Source: Patescibacteria group bacterium
GTDB lineage: Bacteria > Patescibacteriota > Patescibacteriia > 2-01-FULL-39-33
Assembly (NCBI GenBank): GCA_041649575.1
Contig: JBAZMW010000002.1
Location: 78,159-142,158, forward strand
Direction: 5' to 3'
DNA: 64,000 nucleotides
Shown: positions 2,887 through 59,784 of the stretch, one piece after another
Layout of the letters: each line of letters starts with the position of its first letter
Position numbering within the stretch: the first letter of the stretch is position 1
The notes under the pieces: generated by a model
Told to the model about the DNA's origin: nothing
What the model saw: the letters and a program-made list of their open reading frames with translations, nothing else
Database searches by the model: none
Made by a program: the position numbers and the translations under genes

Positions 2887-3864
2887 ATGCTAGACCAAAA
2901 TATTAAAAAGTTTTTGGCTAAACTCTCGCAGTCGTTTCTTTTGTTCGCCCCGCAACCGTTGGGGAGTGTTGTTAAAATAAAGCCAGTTGCAGAGATTGGC
3001 AATATCGACTGGTCGGGCGCTATGCCGCTCAACTCCTGGAAAGAAATTTTTTTACCAGCCAGAGAAAGATTATTCGACCTAAAGAAAAATTCTTTTTTTG
3101 AGTCCAAGACGGATTATCCGGCTACCGCCTGCATTGGCATTAATGTTTTGGATTTAAAGGCCTTTACTTTATTTGAACAGGTGTTCGGCCGCGATGCTTA
3201 TTATCAACAGCGGCGTCGCAATCTGTTGCTTGTCGGCTACAGCGCCCAGTGGCCCAATGATTACAAAAAATACAAAGTTTTCAGTCATAACTGGGAAGAA
3301 GATATTTTAGAGCATCTGGTTTTTGATATTTTTATAATTCAACTGAAGAACGATAAAACCAAGATTTACTCCGGTTCAGAGAAAGGGCAATTGATTCTAG
3401 AAAAATACGGCCTGAAAAATTACACGCATTTGGAATTTGCCGGCGCTGTCAAAGAGCAAGGCCCGGATAAAAAAATGTTGGAGCTCAAGGAAAAGCTGGC
3501 TAAGGCCTCCAGCCACAAACTCTGGAACGAACTTGATAAAATTTGCCTGGCCTGCGGTAAATGCTCGATCGCTTGCCCCACTTGTTTTTGTTTTGATTTA
3601 TTTGATAAAGTCGACCCCGATAAGAATTGTCGCGAGCGTTATTGGGGCAATTGTTTTTATAACGATTTTTCCAAGGTGGCCGGCGGTTTTAAAGAGCTAG
3701 ACACAGTCAAAAAGAAGATTTATTTTTGGTATACCCACAAATTTGTCCGCATTCCGCACGAATATTCTCTGCCCGGTTGTGTCGGTTGCGGCCGTTGCAC
3801 TCGTGTTTGTCCGGTGGGAATTGATATTGCCAAAAACGTTTCTATTATCGGTAAAATCAGATAG
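2887..3864 (+). CDS. [NiFe]-hydrogenase group 3b (sulfhydrogenase-type) beta subunit, 4Fe-4S ferredoxin domain protein (HydB/AsrA-like)
   Basis: C-terminal CxxCxxCxxxCP-type motifs (CLACGKCSIACPTCFCFD; CVGCGRCTRVCPVG). Followed 6 nt later by the gamma subunit. Confidence 0.7.
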   Translation: MLDQNIKKFLAKLSQSFLLFAPQPLGSVVKIKPVAEIGNIDWSGAMPLNSWKEIFLPARERLFDLKKNSFFESKTDYPATACIGINVLDLKAFTLFEQVFGRDAYYQQRRRNLLLVGYSAQWPNDYKKYKVFSHNWEEDILEHLVFDIFIIQLKNDKTKIYSGSEKGQLILEKYGLKNYTHLEFAGAVKEQGPDKKMLELKEKLAKASSHKLWNELDKICLACGKCSIACPTCFCFDLFDKVDPDKNCRERYWGNCFYNDFSKVAGGFKELDTVKKKIYFWYTHKFVRIPHEYSLPGCVGCGRCTRVCPVGIDIAKNVSIIGKIR

Positions 3865-3869
3865 TTTCA

Positions 3870-4691
3870 ATGAACAATATTTACCAAGCTCAACCAGCCA
3901 AAATAATCAGTGTCGTTCAAGAATCTTTAGACACCAGGTTTTTTCGCTTGACCTTTGTCAACAAAAAATTACAAAAGGAGCTGGCTTTTCTGCCGGGCCA
4001 ATTCGTGCAAATCGGTTTGCCGGGCTGGGGCGAGTGTCCTATTAGCATCTGTTCTTCCCCCTCCAACGCCAATAAATTCTTTGAGTTAGCCATCAGAAAC
4101 GTCGGTACGCTGACTAATGAGCTTAGTCGGTTGAAAGCCGGGGAAATAGTGTTTATCCGCGGGCCATACGGCAACGGTTTTGATATCGATTTTTCCAAAG
4201 ATAAGCCGCTAGTGATAATCGGCGGTGGTTGCGGTTTTGTGCCACTAAGGCCACTGATTCAGGATTTTTTGGCTGGCCGTTTGTCTAGTTCCAGCCTGCA
4301 GATATTTTATGGCTGCCTCAATGAAAAAACCCTGTTGTTTAGAAAAGAATATCATCTTTGGAATCGCCGCGCCGAACTCAACATTATTTTGGAAAAGCCG
4401 TCCAGAGAATGGAAGGGCAAAAAAGGCCTGATTACAGATCTGCTGGCCCAAAAAAAGATTTCGGCCAGCTCGGTGGCTGTTCTGGTGGGCCCGCCAGTGA
4501 TGTACAGGTTTGTCATCAAGGAACTCAAAAAAAGAAATCTGAAAGATGAAAATATTTATTTGTCGCTGGAGCGGAAAATGTATTGCGGCACTGGTGTTTG
4601 CCAGCATTGTGCCATTGGCCCGTATTATGTCTGTAAAGATGGCCCGGTTTTCTCTTGGAGCCAGCTGAAAGGTTTGCCTCAAGCGATTTAA
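3870..4691 (+). CDS. [NiFe]-hydrogenase group 3b gamma subunit (FAD/NAD(P)-binding oxidoreductase with C-terminal 2Fe-2S cluster, HydG/AsrB-like)
   Basis: Ferredoxin-NADP reductase-like fold motifs (RxFS-type FAD site, GGGCG NAD site) and C-terminal CGTGVCQHCAIG Fe-S motif. Confidence 0.7.
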   Translation: MNNIYQAQPAKIISVVQESLDTRFFRLTFVNKKLQKELAFLPGQFVQIGLPGWGECPISICSSPSNANKFFELAIRNVGTLTNELSRLKAGEIVFIRGPYGNGFDIDFSKDKPLVIIGGGCGFVPLRPLIQDFLAGRLSSSSLQIFYGCLNEKTLLFRKEYHLWNRRAELNIILEKPSREWKGKKGLITDLLAQKKISASSVAVLVGPPVMYRFVIKELKKRNLKDENIYLSLERKMYCGTGVCQHCAIGPYYVCKDGPVFSWSQLKGLPQAI

Positions 4692-10221: not shown

Positions 10222-11520
10222 ATGCGTATCCAAATAAATCACATTGGTAAAATGGAAGGCCACACGGACTTCGTGGCCGAGATTTTGAAAGGTGATGTCA
10301 AATCAGCCAAACTGATGACCACCGAAGGTGCTCGTCTGATAGAGGGCATTTTGGTCGGCCGTAATTTTTACGAGGCGCCGATTATCACTTCTCGCATCTG
10401 TGGTATCTGCCCGGTGGTTCATAAAATTTCCTCCATTAGGGCGCTGGAGAACGCTTTAGCTATTAAGCCCAGTGAACAGACAATTAAATTAAGAAAACTA
10501 ATGCTGATGGCGCAAACCATTCATAGCCACGCCTTACATTTGTTTTTTTTGTCTTTGCCGGATTTTTTCAACCTATTGGACGACTTTAAATTTATTGCCA
10601 ACCATAAAAAAGAAACTGATTGCGCTATTAAGGTGCGTGAGTGGGCTTTGAAAGTTATTGAAACTGTTGGCGGACGGGCGGTACATCCGATTGCTTGTGA
10701 AGTTGGTGGCTTTAAGGTTTTGCCCGACAAAAAAGAATTGAAAGATTTGGCTGATCAATACGAAAACATTCTAAAACAGGCACTGTGTCTGGTGAATCTG
10801 ACTATCAAAATAAAATTTCCCAAATTTAGCCGGCCCACGACCTTCATTTCTTTGACCAATGAAAAAGAATACGCCTTTTATGATGGCGATATTAAAATTT
10901 TAAATAAAAATGGCCAGACAAGGATTATTAAGGCCAAAGATTTTACCAAGAATATTAAGGAGATCGAAGAGCCCTATCGCGCCGCCAAATCGGCTGAGTT
11001 AAAGGGTGAGCCGTTTATGGTCGGCGCTTTGGCGCGACTAAATAACAATCATAGCCAATTGAATCACTTGGCCAAGGGAATTCAAAAAGGTTTAAAATGG
11101 AAGTTCCCGCAGTATAATTCTTTTGAAAATATTACCGCCCAGGCTATTGAAATCGTCCATTGTCTAGAGGAAGCCAAAAAATTACTTGACGATTTAGTTA
11201 AAAATTTGAAAAATGAGACCAGTCAGGCCGAGAAGCTCGGCTTAATTGGTCAGGCCAATCCCTTGGGACGTGAGACAAGTGGCTGTGACGCCAGCGAGGC
11301 GCCGCGTGGCACCTTGTATCATTATTACGCCATTGATAAAGACGGCTATATCAAGGATTGTCAGATTATCACGCCGACGGTGTCTTTTTTAAAAAATTTG
11401 GAAGCAGATATTATTGCCTATATCCCGGATTTGAAAAAAATGTCGCCCGAAAAATGTTCACGCAAAATCCGCGCCCTTATTCGCGCCTATGATCCTTGTA
11501 TTAGTTGCGCCACACATTAA
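10222..11520 (+). CDS. [NiFe]-hydrogenase group 3b large (alpha) catalytic subunit; ends exactly at the C-terminal His of the DPCxxCxxH motif
   Basis: N-terminal Ni-binding motif RICGICPVVH and C-terminal DPCISCATH followed directly by a stop codon. Confidence 0.85.
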   Translation: MRIQINHIGKMEGHTDFVAEILKGDVKSAKLMTTEGARLIEGILVGRNFYEAPIITSRICGICPVVHKISSIRALENALAIKPSEQTIKLRKLMLMAQTIHSHALHLFFLSLPDFFNLLDDFKFIANHKKETDCAIKVREWALKVIETVGGRAVHPIACEVGGFKVLPDKKELKDLADQYENILKQALCLVNLTIKIKFPKFSRPTTFISLTNEKEYAFYDGDIKILNKNGQTRIIKAKDFTKNIKEIEEPYRAAKSAELKGEPFMVGALARLNNNHSQLNHLAKGIQKGLKWKFPQYNSFENITAQAIEIVHCLEEAKKLLDDLVKNLKNETSQAEKLGLIGQANPLGRETSGCDASEAPRGTLYHYYAIDKDGYIKDCQIITPTVSFLKNLEADIIAYIPDLKKMSPEKCSRKIRALIRAYDPCISCATH

Positions 11521-31385: not shown

Positions 31386-31389
31386 TTTT

Positions 31390-31850
31390 TTAAAAAAAGA
31401 GATGCCAGTCCATTCTCGTGACGGACTGGCATCAGGCATTACTATAGAGCAAGAGAGATTAACCGGCAGACAGGGCGAGAGGGGATCGTCTCTTTTCCCA
31501 TCTTAATAACTTGTCATCCTCCCCCAGTGTTGCAGTAGTGAGCTCCTCCGGAGTGGTTAACTCCAGTTTAGTTCTAGCGCCCGGAAGGAGAAAGGGGGGC
31601 TCCTGCAAACACATCCGGAAGGATTAGGCTGATATAGCTTTGGCTTTCGGTGCTGTTCTGGTCCAGCCCCGAAATAATCCCAGCCCCGCAATGACGAAGG
31701 AATCAGCCATACTCTGAAAACAAGTTAACTGTCGGGACTAGTCCTTGCCCGGCGCTGGACTAGTCGTTGCGCTGGTGGCAGCTTAACCTCTCTTAGAAAA
31801 GATCTAAAGGGCACTGAAGTAGCTAGTTTCCATCCTAATATAAAATTAAT
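31390..31850 (-). ncRNA. Candidate structured non-coding RNA (~450 nt, G+C-rich, ORF-free), family not identified
   Basis: No ORF of 60 aa or more on either strand. G+C-rich against AT-rich flanks. Ends (minus strand) in an 11-bp perfect hairpin (31401-31433) followed by a T8 run. Confidence 0.4.
31401..31433 (-). terminator. Rho-independent terminator (minus-strand orientation)
   Basis: gatgccagtcc-attctcgtgac-ggactggcatc, with plus-strand A8 immediately upstream (a T-run on the minus strand). Confidence 0.65.
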
Positions 31851-31853
31851 TAT

Positions 31854-38135: not shown

Positions 38136-38274
38136 CAAAAACTCAAATAATGTGGATAAAGGTCTTGACACCTTTTTAAAAAAGTACTATTCTCCTATCT
38201 ATATTAATTAGTCGAATTAAGTTGAATTTCTACACCCTTTCTCGGTGGTTTTTATTTAAACTAAAAGTATCAAG

Positions 38275-38736
38275 ATGGCAGAAAATTATATCTCAGCGGC
38301 GGGCCTGGAAAAGGTCAAGGAGGAATTAGAAAAATTAAAAAATATCGATCGTCCCGAGGTCATAGAGCGTATTGCCAGATCCAGGGAGCTGGGCGATTTA
38401 TCAGAGAATGCCGAATATCATGAAGCTCGGGAGAAGCAGAGTTTTATTGAAGGCAGAATTCAGGAATTAGAGGCCTTGATTAAAAACGCGGTCATTATTA
38501 AGAATGATAAAAAGCCAAGTTTGGTTGGATTGGGATCGACTGTTTTGGCCACTTGTGATAACGGCGCTAAGATAAAATATATGATCGTGGGCCACCAAGA
38601 GGCCGACCCCTCTAGTGGCCGGATTTCTCATGAGTCGCCACTGGGGCGCGCTTTTATCGGCAGGAAAATAGGAGATGAATTTGAGCTTCAAGTCCCGGCC
38701 GGCAAACTCAAGTGTAAAATTAACAAGATTGAATAA
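38275..38736 (+). CDS. greA: Transcription elongation factor GreA
   Basis: 153 aa; GDLSENAEYHEAREKQSFIEGRI motif. Confidence 0.9.
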   Translation: MAENYISAAGLEKVKEELEKLKNIDRPEVIERIARSRELGDLSENAEYHEAREKQSFIEGRIQELEALIKNAVIIKNDKKPSLVGLGSTVLATCDNGAKIKYMIVGHQEADPSSGRISHESPLGRAFIGRKIGDEFELQVPAGKLKCKINKIE

Positions 38737-45730: not shown

Positions 45731-45746
45731 TTTTATTATTGTTATG

Positions 45747-45774
45747 TTAAGGGCAGGCCATGGCCTGCCCTTAA
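45747..45774. terminator. Perfect palindromic hairpin after dnaK
   Basis: ttaagggcaggcc-atgg-cctgcccttaa. Confidence 0.7.
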
Positions 45775-45777
45775 CAT

Positions 45778-46140
45778 AAAAGAAAAACGCCTCACCTATG
45801 ACAGCGTGAGGACGTGTACTTGCAAGGACAACGGCATGGTCATTCCCCGTCAGGCAGACTTTGTCTGGCCGAGATGCCCATACCCACGCCCAGCCGATGC
45901 GTTTCATTGCGAATCTGACCCGGGCTAGTGGCTTCACCGGTAAATCCGAGATAAAACCCACCCCACCAGAGGGCAGCGGCGTTATTCCTGGTCATTTCAT
46001 CTGGGAGCAGACTGGGGCACCCGGGTGCGTGGTGGAAGTCTTGGTCGAGGTTGCAGAATCGGCATGATGGTGACTGTGACATAACTGAACCTCCCTAGTC
46101 ATGTAGTTTCGCCAAGCAGAAACTGAAAGGACAATCGCTA
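45778..46140 (-). ncRNA. G+C-rich transcription unit on the minus strand (~360 nt) with consensus promoter and intrinsic terminator: structured RNA or horizontally acquired small protein gene (80-aa ORF with GGGAGG RBS)
   Basis: Minus-strand TTGACA-17-TATAAT (plus coordinates 46171-46176 and 46148-46153). Terminator hairpin cctcac/gtgagg plus a T-run at 45778-45811. Internal 80-aa ORF 45840-46082 with GGGAGG 8 nt before its ATG. Confidence 0.35.
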
Positions 46141-46147
46141 ACTTTTT

Positions 46148-46176
46148 ATTATAGATTATAAATTTATTTTTGTCAA
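46148..46176 (-). promoter_or_regulatory. Perfect consensus sigma70 promoter (TTGACA-N17-TATAAT) driving the minus-strand island transcript
   Basis: Reverse complement reads tttgacaaaaataaatttataatctataat. The -35 overlaps the ATG of the divergent + gene at 46170. Confidence 0.6.
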
Positions 46177-57401: not shown

Positions 57402-57743
57402 ATGCCAGACGCCTTTTCTACAAATTTTAATCGTTTTTTGGATGACGGCCTGAAGATCGTTGCCAATTGCCCGGTTTGCCATTATCATTACAACCCGGGT
57501 GAAGCCAAAGTCTTGGAAGAGAATGAGGGGGCTCACTTGATTTATCTCAAATGTCGTCGTTGTTATTCGGCAATTCTGGTTTTAATAATGGCCAATAATT
57601 TTGGCATTAGTTCGGTGGGCTTGATCACCGACTTGGACAGTCACGAAGTGATGAAGTTTAAAGCCGCCAAAGAAACAAACAGCGACGACGTCTTGTCTGT
57701 TCATCAGCTTTTAGAAAATAATTCTTCCGGCTGGTTTGGCTAG
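57402..57743 (+). CDS. Hypothetical zinc-ribbon protein (CPVCH...CRRC)
   Basis: Two CxxC pairs spaced as in Zn ribbons; 113 aa. Confidence 0.35.
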   Translation: MPDAFSTNFNRFLDDGLKIVANCPVCHYHYNPGEAKVLEENEGAHLIYLKCRRCYSAILVLIMANNFGISSVGLITDLDSHEVMKFKAAKETNSDDVLSVHQLLENNSSGWFG

Positions 57744-57851: not shown

Positions 57852-58508
57852 ATGACTAGCAAATTAGAAGCGGCAACCAGAACCCTGTCCGGTAAAAAAT
57901 TATTCAAGTTAAGGCAGCAGGATAAAATACCGGCAGTTATCTATGGCCATGGCTCGGAAAACAAGAGTTTAGAGTTGGGATATTCGTTTTTTTCCAGTCT
58001 TTATCAGGAGGCTGGAGAAAATACCATTATTGATTTGGTAATCGACGGTGGCGCTCCGGTTAAGGCGCTGATTGCCGATGTTCAGTATAATCCTTTGAGC
58101 GGCCGCATTCAGCACGTTGATTTTCAGACCGTCAAGATGGACGAAAAGATACACGCTCATGTCAGTTTCGAATTTATCGGCGAATGCCGTCTGGTCAAAG
58201 AAGAAGGCGGTGTTTTGATTCATAATCTGGACGAAGTGGAAATCTATTGTCTGCCGGGCGACTTGATTCATGAGATCGAAATCGATCTCTCCGTCCTCAA
58301 GGAATTCGGCGATGTCATCGCCGTCAAGGATCTAAAGTTGTCTCAAAAGGTGGAAATCATCGGCCACGAGCCGGAGGATGTAATTGTCACGATTACCCGG
58401 CCGAGGGAAGAAAAAGAAGAGGTAGTGGCGGCTCCGGCCGAAGAGGTTGCGACCAGTGAAGTCAAGGAAGCAGCCAGTGAGAAAGTTGAAAGTACGGAAA
58501 AGCAATAA
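57852..58508 (+). CDS. rplY: 50S ribosomal protein L25 / general stress protein Ctc
   Basis: L25 N-terminal and Ctc beta-barrel domain with an acidic C-terminal tail. Confidence 0.9.
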   Translation: MTSKLEAATRTLSGKKLFKLRQQDKIPAVIYGHGSENKSLELGYSFFSSLYQEAGENTIIDLVIDGGAPVKALIADVQYNPLSGRIQHVDFQTVKMDEKIHAHVSFEFIGECRLVKEEGGVLIHNLDEVEIYCLPGDLIHEIEIDLSVLKEFGDVIAVKDLKLSQKVEIIGHEPEDVIVTITRPREEKEEVVAAPAEEVATSEVKEAASEKVESTEKQ

Positions 58509-58521
58509 AATCTATAACTCA

Positions 58522-58556
58522 AAAGAAGGCCGGTATCTAGGCCTTCTTTTGTTTTT
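58522..58556 (+). terminator. Rho-independent terminator after rplY
   Basis: aagaaggcc-ggtatcta-ggccttctt followed by ttgttttt. Confidence 0.75.
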
Positions 58557-58573
58557 GCCGATTTTTACCTGTT

Positions 58574-58602
58574 GATATTTAGTTTGACGTTTTTACTAAA
58601 TG
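58574..58602 (+). promoter_or_regulatory. Sigma70-like promoter TTGACG-N17-TATTAT driving the candidate sRNA
   Basis: ttgacg (58574-58579), 17-nt spacer, tattat (58597-58602). Confidence 0.55.
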
Positions 58603-58608
58603 GTGATA

Positions 58609-58880
58609 TTATAAAAATGCACCTAGTTTTTGGGAATGGGAGGAGACAAAGAGAGCCCAAGTTGGTGGTGGCGAAGGAGGGGAAAACACACTGACCTTGT
58701 CGGTGTGGGATCAACCCGCATTTCCTGGCGGAAGAGGAGAACAGCGGTATGGTTCGCGAACGCCCACCCTGATCAAATTATCGATTCTACATAACAGGTA
58801 GTCGCTGTTGATACGATTCGGGTGCGTCAAAGCTCGGGGCATGGCTTAACGGTCGTGCCCCGGGCTCTCTATTTTTTAAT
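58609..58880 (+). ncRNA. Candidate small structured RNA (~270 nt, G+C-rich, no ORF) with its own promoter and terminator; family unassigned
   Basis: Only tiny ORFs (19 aa or less). G+C-rich. Ends in hairpin cggggca...tgccccg plus a T6 run, abutting the prmC stop on the other strand. Confidence 0.45.
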
Positions 58881-59784
58881 CAACTATTTCTAAAATTCGA
58901 TTGAGGCCGGCTAGGTCTTTTTTTATTTCTATTTTGGAATCTGGAAAATATTTTTGTGCCAGTTTCTTTGTCTCCTGCGGGTAAGCGTGGCCAATCTCGC
59001 AAAAAATCGCTCGTGGCTGGTGGGCCATTTTTTTTATTTGCTGAAATAATTTATCAGAAAGTTCTAAACCAAACTTGCCGCCGGCCAAGGCCAATTTTGG
59101 CTCAAAGTCCAGGGAGTGTCGGTGCGCTTGTTGATTTTTTTCTAGGCGTAGGTTTTTTTCTTTATCGTCCAGATAAGGAAGATTGGCCACAATAACGTCA
59201 ATTTTTTTATTACCAACATTCTTCAGTAAGTCGCTTTTAAAAAATTCAATTTTTACTTTGTTAATCTCGGCATTTAAGCTAGCTATTTTTAGGGCTTTGC
59301 TGGATATATCTAGAGCTAAGATTTGGGCCTGTGGCAGGCTTTTTTTGAGAGCCACGGCAATGCAGCCAGAACCAGTGCCCACATCAACCAGGATCGGTTT
59401 TTGGCTTCTGGGCGGTTTCTGGCAATAAGCGATCGCCTCCTCCACCAATAACTCTGTTTCCGGGCGGGGGATTAGGACGTTTTTGTTGACTTTGAACCGC
59501 AGGCCGAAAAATTCTTTGTTGCCGGTAAGATAAGCCACCGGCTCGTGGCGGGTCCGGCGGCTGATTAATTTTGAAAAAGCTTGCCGCTGTTTGTCGGTCA
59601 ATTTTTTTTCACCATGGGCATAAAGGAACTCTCGCGGTTTTTTTAGCACAAAACTTAAAATTACTTCAGCATCCAATCCGGCCGAAGTAATTCCGCTATT
59701 TTGCAGTTTTTTGCTAGCCGCTGCCAAGGCTTGTTTGGCGGTCATAAATTCTCGTAACGTTTCATGGCTCGTCTGGCGCGCCAA
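58876..59784 (-). CDS. prmC: Release-factor glutamine N5-methyltransferase PrmC (HemK); true start possibly Met14 (59745)
   Basis: SAM motif VDVGTGSGCIA, and catalytic motif IVANLPYL (an NLPY variant of NPPY). Confidence 0.8.
   Translation of the reverse strand: MARQTSHETLREFMTAKQALAAASKKLQNSGITSAGLDAEVILSFVLKKPREFLYAHGEKKLTDKQRQAFSKLISRRTRHEPVAYLTGNKEFFGLRFKVNKNVLIPRPETELLVEEAIAYCQKPPRSQKPILVDVGTGSGCIAVALKKSLPQAQILALDISSKALKIASLNAEINKVKIEFFKSDLLKNVGNKKIDVIVANLPYLDDKEKNLRLEKNQQAHRHSLDFEPKLALAGGKFGLELSDKLFQQIKKMAHQPRAIFCEIGHAYPQETKKLAQKYFPDSKIEIKKDLAGLNRILEIVD

Follow-up and report, generated by a model that had tools for sequence, protein, structure and literature searches.

A candidate stand-alone non-coding RNA gene with recurring expression signals and a freely varying body between rplY and prmC in a Patescibacteria genome

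The question raised by this locus is what occupies the 367-nt gap (58509-58875) between the convergent genes rplY and prmC in a 64,000-nt stretch of contig JBAZMW010000002.1 from a Patescibacteria group bacterium; this whole stretch is called the window below. Genomes of the candidate phyla radiation (CPR, Patescibacteria) are tiny and have very short intergenic spacers, and for this reason a gap of ~370 nt with a strong promoter and a terminator of its own is unlikely to be idle; to our knowledge, the non-coding RNA repertoire of the CPR is almost undescribed. On balance, the gap may well hold a real, independently transcribed non-coding RNA gene of ~255 nt that belongs to no known family. 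Such a gene would count among the stand-alone small RNA genes of bacteria, as an unclassified member whose evolutionary signature is unusual. This claim rests on signals and synteny, and the function of the RNA is unproven. The whole candidate unit lies inside the gap, and its parts and the two flanking genes are as follows.

58570-58578, + strand: DnaA-box-like 9-mer TGTTGATAT, matching TGTGGATAA at 7 of 9 positions, 5 nt upstream of the -35 hexamer
58584-58612, + strand: sigma-70-type promoter, with -35 TTGACG at 58584-58589, a 17-nt spacer and an extended -10 TGaTATTAT at 58604-58612 (promoter scan)
58619-58875, + strand: predicted primary transcript, ~255 nt (promoter/terminator geometry)
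58831-58877, + strand: intrinsic terminator, consisting of a 16-bp hairpin at 58831-58866 and CUCUAUUUUUU on its 3' side (terminator scan)
58520-58551, + strand: intrinsic terminator of rplY, a 12-bp hairpin with an A-run on its 5' side and a T-run on its 3' side (terminator scan, sequence)
57852-58508, + strand: rplY, with the Pfam domains Ribosomal_L25p and TL5_C
58876-59784, - strand: prmC, convergent to rplY, with the Pfam domains PrmC_N and MTS

The transcript start was placed 6-8 nt past the -10 hexamer and the transcript end inside the U-run. The promoter-like site has 10 of 12 matches together with the TG of an extended -10 and directly follows the rplY terminator, which looks bidirectional and, judging from its sequence, would form the upstream boundary of the RNA unit. 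The hairpin of the unit's own terminator has 10 GC pairs among its 16 bp and the 3' flank CTCTATTTTTT, and its T-run overlaps the prmC stop codon (58876-58878). The 3' end of the RNA would have its complement in any prmC mRNA that reads through this hairpin. Promoter-like sites numbered 6 against 1.7 expected from shuffles, and terminator-like sites 6 against 1.6. The unit shows what is generally looked for in a bacterial small RNA gene, namely a promoter of its own, a Rho-independent terminator, an intergenic location and non-coding content. The original prediction, which was made from the sequence alone, had described the promoter TTGACG-17-TATTAT after the rplY terminator and a terminator abutting the stop of convergent prmC, and both were recovered by the scans; the motifs quoted in it (gaaggagggg, ggaagaggagaac and gttcgcgaac) are all found in the sequence. 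It had also spoken of a marked G+C excess, which is an overstatement of a real but moderate excess: G+C is 0.546 in 58620-58870 against 0.435 in the window, within the top 4% of the window's 250-nt windows, and is 0.524 in the unit body of ~210 nt without the terminator.

An important part of the evidence comes from about 145 related loci, to which we refer by labels such as L048. The closest L25 proteins found in 5.8 billion sequences are 55-62% identical to that of the window, and thus no close relative of the organism is at hand; L135 is the closest L25 relative (59% identity). Convergent rplY-prmC synteny is common among the related loci, but they differ in what fills the junction: L057, L065, L075, L087, L107, L115, L131, L135 and L144 have a DUF3048 gene there, L138 an EamA gene and L051 a 91-aa hypothetical open reading frame (ORF), and in L053, L139, L140 and L062 it is near-empty, with one bidirectional terminator. 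The rplY/prmC junction is a hot spot of variable content. Five other lineages have, at this same junction, G+C-rich non-coding sequence equipped with a strong promoter and a terminator of its own. The units measure about 830-930 nt in L048/L049, about 540 nt in L051/L052/L055, about 720 nt in L141 and about 240 nt in L142, and L135 has two of about 150 and 290 nt; with the window, this makes six or more lineages of this Patescibacteria group in which the junction holds such a unit. The unit bodies of the window, L048, L049 and L051 have a G+C content of 0.52-0.53, compared with 0.40-0.46 for their loci.

In L135, the two non-coding units stand in tandem (3660-4235) between DUF3048 and prmC; neither of them has an Rfam match, and each has a TTGACA-17-TGaTATAAT consensus promoter and a terminator. 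A 14-bp stem, GGUGGCGGUGAUGG/CCAUCACUGCCACC, closes the shorter one (unit 1, about 150 nt); the longer one (unit 2, about 290 nt) contains AAAGGAGGAAGGG, then an ATG and an 11-codon ORF. An 84-aa minus-strand ORF assigned there by a gene caller looks spurious.

Which parts of the unit are kept during evolution can be seen most directly in L048 and L049, whose L25 proteins are 88% identical and whose rplY genes are saturated at fourfold-degenerate sites (34% identity). These two loci align at ~80% in the rplY terminator, the promoter, the first ~12 transcribed nt and the terminator base, and the intervening 800-900 nt are unalignable; apparent conserved islands within this part were discarded, because 15 shared 8-mers were seen when about 12 were expected by chance. 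Across all the units, the transcribed bodies have neither sequence nor length nor any detectable structure in common, and tblastx gave nothing. Local alignment of unit bodies gave the scores of shuffled sequence except in the terminator tail, where the window, L048 and L049 have the same 13 nt, CTCTCTATTTTTT; we read this tail as positional homology of a shared terminator and not as an RNA motif, because in L048 and L049 it is partly prmC coding sequence. A covariance model of the core domain (R1, 58660-58775) found only itself in 355 kb, and with filters off on six syntenic loci it gave noise in coding regions.

The control region shows a more specific pattern. A DnaA-box-like 9-mer stands 4-6 nt upstream of the -35 hexamer with 9/9 matches in L048 and L049, 8/9 in L051 and 7/9 in the window and L141, and this upstream box is common to four lineages, the window included. 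Among 2044 promoter-like sites, a box with at least 7/9 matches is found in 1.4%, with 8/9 in 0.29% and with 9/9 in 0.15%. The combined pattern of box plus promoter, which was derived from these same units, has no match outside them in the 1.67 Mb scanned, a figure that counts both strands of about 0.83 Mb. A free-end global alignment of promoters gave no discrimination from controls, and the anchored box test was used instead.

The same architecture is also present elsewhere in the window (38151-38200), where greA (38275-38736) is preceded by a TTGACA-17-TATTCT promoter and, 5 nt upstream of that promoter, by a perfect DnaA box TGTGGATAA (38151-38159). Because the box-to-(-35) architecture is the same, greA and the RNA unit may share a regulator.

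The fold predicted for the transcript contains the following elements.

58638-58646, + strand: 5'-proximal Shine-Dalgarno (SD)-like purine tract GGGAGGAGA, mostly unpaired in the predicted fold
58661-58773, + strand: core domain (RNAalifold/minimum free energy (MFE) structure used for R1; centroid structure)
58687-58707, + strand: hairpin H1, CACACUGAC-CUU-GUCGGUGUG, 9 bp (MFE, centroid and R1 structures)
58708-58755, + strand: three-tier hairpin H2, with stems GGAUCA/UGGUUC, CCGC/GCGG and UUUCCU/AGGAGA and the loop GGCGGAAG (predicted fold)

The 5' end, GCACCU (58619-58624), is predicted to pair with GGGUGC (58820-58825). The outer stem of the core, GUUGG.GGUGGCG (58661-58673) with CG.CCCACCCUGAU (58761-58773), would enclose a single-stranded GAAGGAGGGGAAAA tract together with H1 and H2. 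Predicted unpaired probabilities are 0.70 for GGGAGGAGA (at +20), 0.56 for GAAGGAGGGGAAAA (core junction) and 0.50 for the GGCGGAAG loop region, against a transcript mean of 0.39, and an SD-like tract is present 20-70 nt from the 5' end in every syntenic unit. The fold z-score of 58619-58880 (262 nt) is -3.57 on the + strand and -1.00 on the - strand, most of the former value being due to the terminator hairpin; for the body alone (58619-58830, 212 nt), the values are -1.34 and +0.33. The thermodynamic evidence that the window copy can give by itself is weak. Body-only values on the + and - strands of other units are -1.26/+0.31 for L142, -3.41/-2.17 for unit 2 of L135, -1.15/+1.19 for L051 and -3.13/-2.56 for L141. 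In these four units and in the window, the transcribed strand folds better, and the Stouffer combination of the five transcribed-strand body z-scores, by our own arithmetic, is about -4.6.

Two adjacent hairpins of the L048 unit (10955-11010), GGAUCGCU-GCAACUUG-AGCGAUCC and GGAUCGUU-GCACUUUG-AACGAUCC, are near-duplicates that differ by a compensatory C-G to U-A change.

Several results weigh against a functional RNA gene and should be considered together. In about 0.8 Mb of related loci, neither nhmmer nor a covariance model found a homologue of the body, and covariation support is thus absent. The L048/L049 pair gave no conserved consensus structure (alifold with column shuffling, z +0.6 to +1.0), a weak test because the alignment is only 47% identical, and the bodies of this pair look as if they evolve at the neutral rate. 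The body of the window copy alone is not significantly more stable than shuffled sequence, and its upstream box agrees at 7/9 positions only. Short motifs are not strongly enriched, the best being AGGAG (z 3.7) and GATC (z 2.9) among hundreds of k-mers. Finally, L053, L139, L140, L138 and L144 have no unit at the junction. The search for a homologous region in relatives, which the original prediction had suggested as a check, has therefore been answered in part: a unit is present at the same junction, and a homologous transcribed region with conserved structure was not detected. Its core claim of a self-contained non-coding unit agrees best with the evidence, that is, with the promoter and terminator signals, the null results for known families, the lack of a conserved coding signal and the recurring promoter architecture.

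If the RNA gene is real, the following mode of action may be proposed. The RNA would be made at a high level and be stable, as suggested by the pairing of its 5' end, the 5'-proximal SD-like tract, the G+C-rich hairpins and the long terminator. Abundant and structured, it would work in trans by exposing short purine motifs, such as GGGAGGAGA, GAAGGAGGGG and the GGCGGAAG loop, and these motifs would titrate a pyrimidine-rich partner, which might be a protein or the 16S anti-SD/30S subunit. Selection would then see only composition, short motifs, expression signals and ends. A secondary effect on the prmC-prfA mRNA through the shared terminator region is also conceivable. We rate titration as fairly unlikely in itself, and it stays a best guess because motif enrichment is marginal: GGA occurs 8 times in the 212-nt body, and across four units AGGA has z 2.3 and AGGAG z 3.7 against dinucleotide shuffles. 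GATC is about twofold over-represented in the combined bodies of the window, L048, L049 and L051 (19 against 10 expected), with 6 occurrences in L048 and 10 in L049.

Among known systems, the evolutionary pattern, and this pattern only, appears closest to titrating or scaffold RNAs such as CsrB/Rsm. CsrB/RsmZ-type RNAs (Rfam CsrB, RsmY and RsmZ) are encoded by stand-alone genes that have a conserved upstream regulator site, a promoter and, at the end, a Rho-independent terminator; from taxon to taxon the bodies differ widely in sequence and length, and the RNAs function through short exposed GGA motifs. The window unit likewise has a conserved box, a promoter and a terminator, and GGA/GGAGG tracts in its hypervariable body are predicted to be accessible; unlike these RNAs, however, it has no Rfam match, and its GGA/AGGAG motifs are neither strongly enriched nor arrayed in regular hairpin loops. 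A second resemblance concerns a design feature, not a family. In Firmicutes, RNAs can be stabilised at the 5' end by a stem-loop or by an SD-like sequence without translation (STAB-SD), and in the window unit GGGAGGAGA lies ~20 nt from the inferred 5' end, no usable start codon follows it, and the 5' end is predicted to be paired.

The explanation that competes best with a trans-acting RNA is that transcription and the 3' end matter while the body is an arbitrary spacer. The promoter points towards prmC, and the terminator region of the RNA must be complementary to the 3' end of the convergent prmC-GT2-prfA mRNA; the unit would tune this operon through RNA duplexes, through cleavage by RNase III or through colliding polymerases. 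It gives the best fit to a conserved promoter and terminator/tail with an unconstrained body, and agrees with the overlap of the T-run with the prmC stop codon and with the fact that the unit, where present, always abuts prmC. We nevertheless hold it to be unlikely: it leaves unexplained both the 52-53% G+C of bodies in A+T-rich genomes and the better folding on the transcribed strand, L053, L139 and L140 manage with a single bidirectional terminator and no unit, and on the - strand only CUUUGA follows the 58831-58866 hairpin.

Alternatively, the unit could be non-functional, what is left of an older gene or insertion that is decaying, and its promoter could be fortuitous or a left-over. The variable content of the junction (DUF3048, EamA or nothing), the unalignable bodies and the weak fold z-score of the window copy would all agree with this, and a DUF3048 pseudogene was one candidate. 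A DUF3048 hidden Markov model (HMM) run against six-frame translations of the gaps and tblastn with neighbouring ORFs gave no signal, however, and hence no remnant of DUF3048 or of a neighbouring ORF was recognised. A neutral remnant in a genome of 40-45% G+C should not keep 52-53% in four lineages, nor should a promoter with a specific upstream box be kept when synonymous sites are saturated. We consider a remnant quite unlikely. A decaying pseudogene is not expected to show a conserved promoter and box, ends, G+C and foldedness with free sequence and length, and a classical structured ribozyme or ribonucleoprotein RNA is not expected to show that pattern either.

A more speculative form of the RNA-gene reading, to which we also give quite a low likelihood, is that the units represent an undescribed class of RNA gene, strongly expressed and with a DnaA-box-like operator as at greA, in which signals, ends, ~52% G+C and foldedness are kept and sequence and length (about 210-880 nt) turn over nearly neutrally. 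If this is true, the product would be a "flexible scaffold", a decoy or a titrating RNA, possibly tied to replication status or to a symbiotic or phage-exposed lifestyle.

A housekeeping RNA so divergent that it escapes Rfam (RNase P RNA, 6S RNA, signal recognition particle (SRP) RNA or tmRNA) is very unlikely and is largely refuted by the comparison, although the idea has a precedent in the CPR. RNase P RNAs of this group are often missed by Rfam models: RF00010 had to be run with a threshold of 5 bits on 10 of 35 complete CPR genomes, and helices are missing or extended (Lui et al. 2021, PMC8172020). In addition, the window has no Rfam-detectable RNase P RNA, tmRNA, SRP RNA or 6S RNA, and the unit has a strong promoter and a composition like that of stable RNAs. 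In the whole window, Rfam 15 at gathering score gave a single tRNA as its only match, and ARAGORN found tRNA-Glu only and no tmRNA; within 58480-58920 (441 nt), nothing was matched in the core of the region even at E<=10, and Rfam searches of four syntenic loci, 20 further loci and the L051 and L048 gaps left the units without a match. The Rfam scan for SRP RNA, 6S RNA, RNase P RNA and tmRNA that the original prediction had called for was thus empty at both thresholds, and its statement that it recognised no SRP, RNase P or tmRNA signature with confidence agrees with Rfam and ARAGORN. Its suggestion of a fragment loosely resembling SRP helix 8 is not supported: no SRP model matched at E<=10, the fragment lies in H2 and consists of the 8-nt loop GGCGGAAG plus one stem strand, and a GNRA tetraloop with a symmetric loop is lacking. 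The GGAA lies here in the 8-nt loop closed by UUUCCU/AGGAGA, and the GGAAGCAG and AGCAGC motifs were not found. As for tmRNA, which combines a tRNA-like domain (acceptor stem with G3:U70, T-arm) with a tag reading frame, the T-arm motif was not found, and the 5'/3' pairing shows A3-U without an adjacent T-arm.

6S RNA (RF00013) is abundant, has ~200 nt and a strong promoter, and is poorly conserved between phyla; the window unit resembles it in the pairing of its 5' and 3' ends and in the large internal loops between the closing pair and the inner stem. Unlike 6S RNA, however, the unit is predicted, in its MFE structure as in its centroid structure, to form a multi-branched fold closed by a stem of 6 bp and not a rod with a central bubble; no covariance model matched, orthologous units reach 540-930 nt, and 6S RNAs are conserved within genera, whereas these units are not. 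The resemblance to CPR RNase P RNA (PMC8172020) lies in the same organism group, a G+C-rich non-coding sequence missed by standard Rfam thresholds, and variable helices; the difference is that the universal P4/CR-I/CR-V core (CR, conserved region) is not recognisable and that orthologous units share no core. RF00010 and RF00011 gave no match at gathering score or E<=10, the 5-bit threshold used in PMC8172020 being lower than these. We therefore sought by eye the P4 pseudoknot formed by CR-I (GAGGAAAGUCC) and CR-V (ACAGAA...GGCUUA) and flanked by P2 and P1. Strings resembling CR-I, CR-III and CR-V can be picked out in the window and L051 units; for example, GGGAGGAGACAAAGAGAGCCC is loosely CR-I-like, and AGAGAGCCC (58650-58658) can pair with GGGCUCUCU (58862-58870). 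This sole complement of the P4-like strand, however, sits 3' of the terminator hairpin, the ACAGAA J2/4 element was not found beside the 3' strand of P4, and GGCUUA occurs only in the terminator loop. A search by nhmmer with the E. coli M1 RNA (377 nt) matched none of the units, and a CR-I-like purine tract is present also on the non-transcribed strand of the unit at 31.58 kb, which indicates that such tracts arise here by chance. Decisive is the L048/L049 pair, which at 88% L25 identity has no conserved core of any kind, since an essential RNA would stay largely conserved at this distance; we have rejected RNase P RNA on these grounds, and lengths of 240-930 nt are in addition unlike those of 6S or SRP RNA.

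A small-protein gene or leaderless mRNA is most improbable. The original prediction stated that no ORF exceeds 19 aa, and this is wrong, because the ORF listing contains longer ones on both strands, including ATG ORFs of 32 and 43 aa on the - strand of the region; those on the + strand are as follows.

58617-58694, + strand: 25-aa ATG ORF, the ATG-initiated part of a 40-aa TTG ORF (58572-58694)
58630-58794, + strand: 54-aa TTG ORF
58697-58801, + strand: 34-aa TTG ORF

Besides these, a 7-aa ORF after GAGGAG may be considered, and SD-like tracts precede tiny ORFs in some units (for example, unit 2 of L135). No ORF of the region, however, has a well-spaced ribosome-binding site (the spacing from SD to start is 13 nt for the 34-aa ORF, and the 54-aa ORF has no SD), tblastx found no ORF conserved between units in any frame, and the ATG at the inferred start site is missing in L048, L049, L051, L141 and L142. 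The peptides are R/G/W-rich, as is expected when G+C-rich sequence is translated.

The remaining candidates were rejected: a mobile element or miniature inverted-repeat transposable element shows no terminal inverted repeats here, its 9-nt direct repeat CTGTTGATA and a 12-nt match to prmC being within or near chance and without extended similarity; a replication origin or DnaA-box cluster is contradicted by the presence of single boxes only and by the lack of any inflection of G+C skew beyond what gene orientation accounts for; and a phage or plasmid origin had no blastn match. The 12-nt match just mentioned is a perfect inverted one, AGGAGACAAAGA, between 58641-58652 in the RNA unit and 58965-58976 in the prmC mRNA (codons ...QETKK...), and is probably due to chance (about 0.01 expected in 600 nt), because the flanks are dissimilar.

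If the candidate RNA is expressed, it will add to the CPR an RNA gene that has a conserved control region and ends and a hypervariable body, and will point to an operator resembling a DnaA box that greA has as well. Should the candidate not be expressed, promoter-terminator geometry combined with G+C content is by itself a basis that over-predicts RNA genes in these genomes.

The window contains at least two more unexplained units of this sort. One is a G+C-rich (0.50), ORF-poor gap (45731-46169) with no Rfam match at E<=10, which has on the - strand a perfect TTGACA-17-TATAAT promoter (reverse complement of about 46141-46169); from this promoter to a palindromic hairpin (45746-45775), a candidate unit of ~360 nt can be drawn, and for its body neither strand gives a significant fold z-score (-0.44 and +1.73). 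The other is the third G+C-rich (0.48) gap of the window (31386-31853), again with no Rfam match, where the hairpin 31403-31434 followed by a T-run on the - strand suggests a minus-strand unit of ~400 nt and where the + strand carries the RNase P CR-I-like string GGAAGGAGAAAGGGGGGCUCC. Close to the locus studied here, between ftsW/rodA and rplY, the window also contains a conserved 113-aa ORF (57402-57743) that has two CxxC pairs, zinc-ribbon-like, and no Pfam domain; a homologue of 110-120 aa occupies the same position in nearly all related loci.

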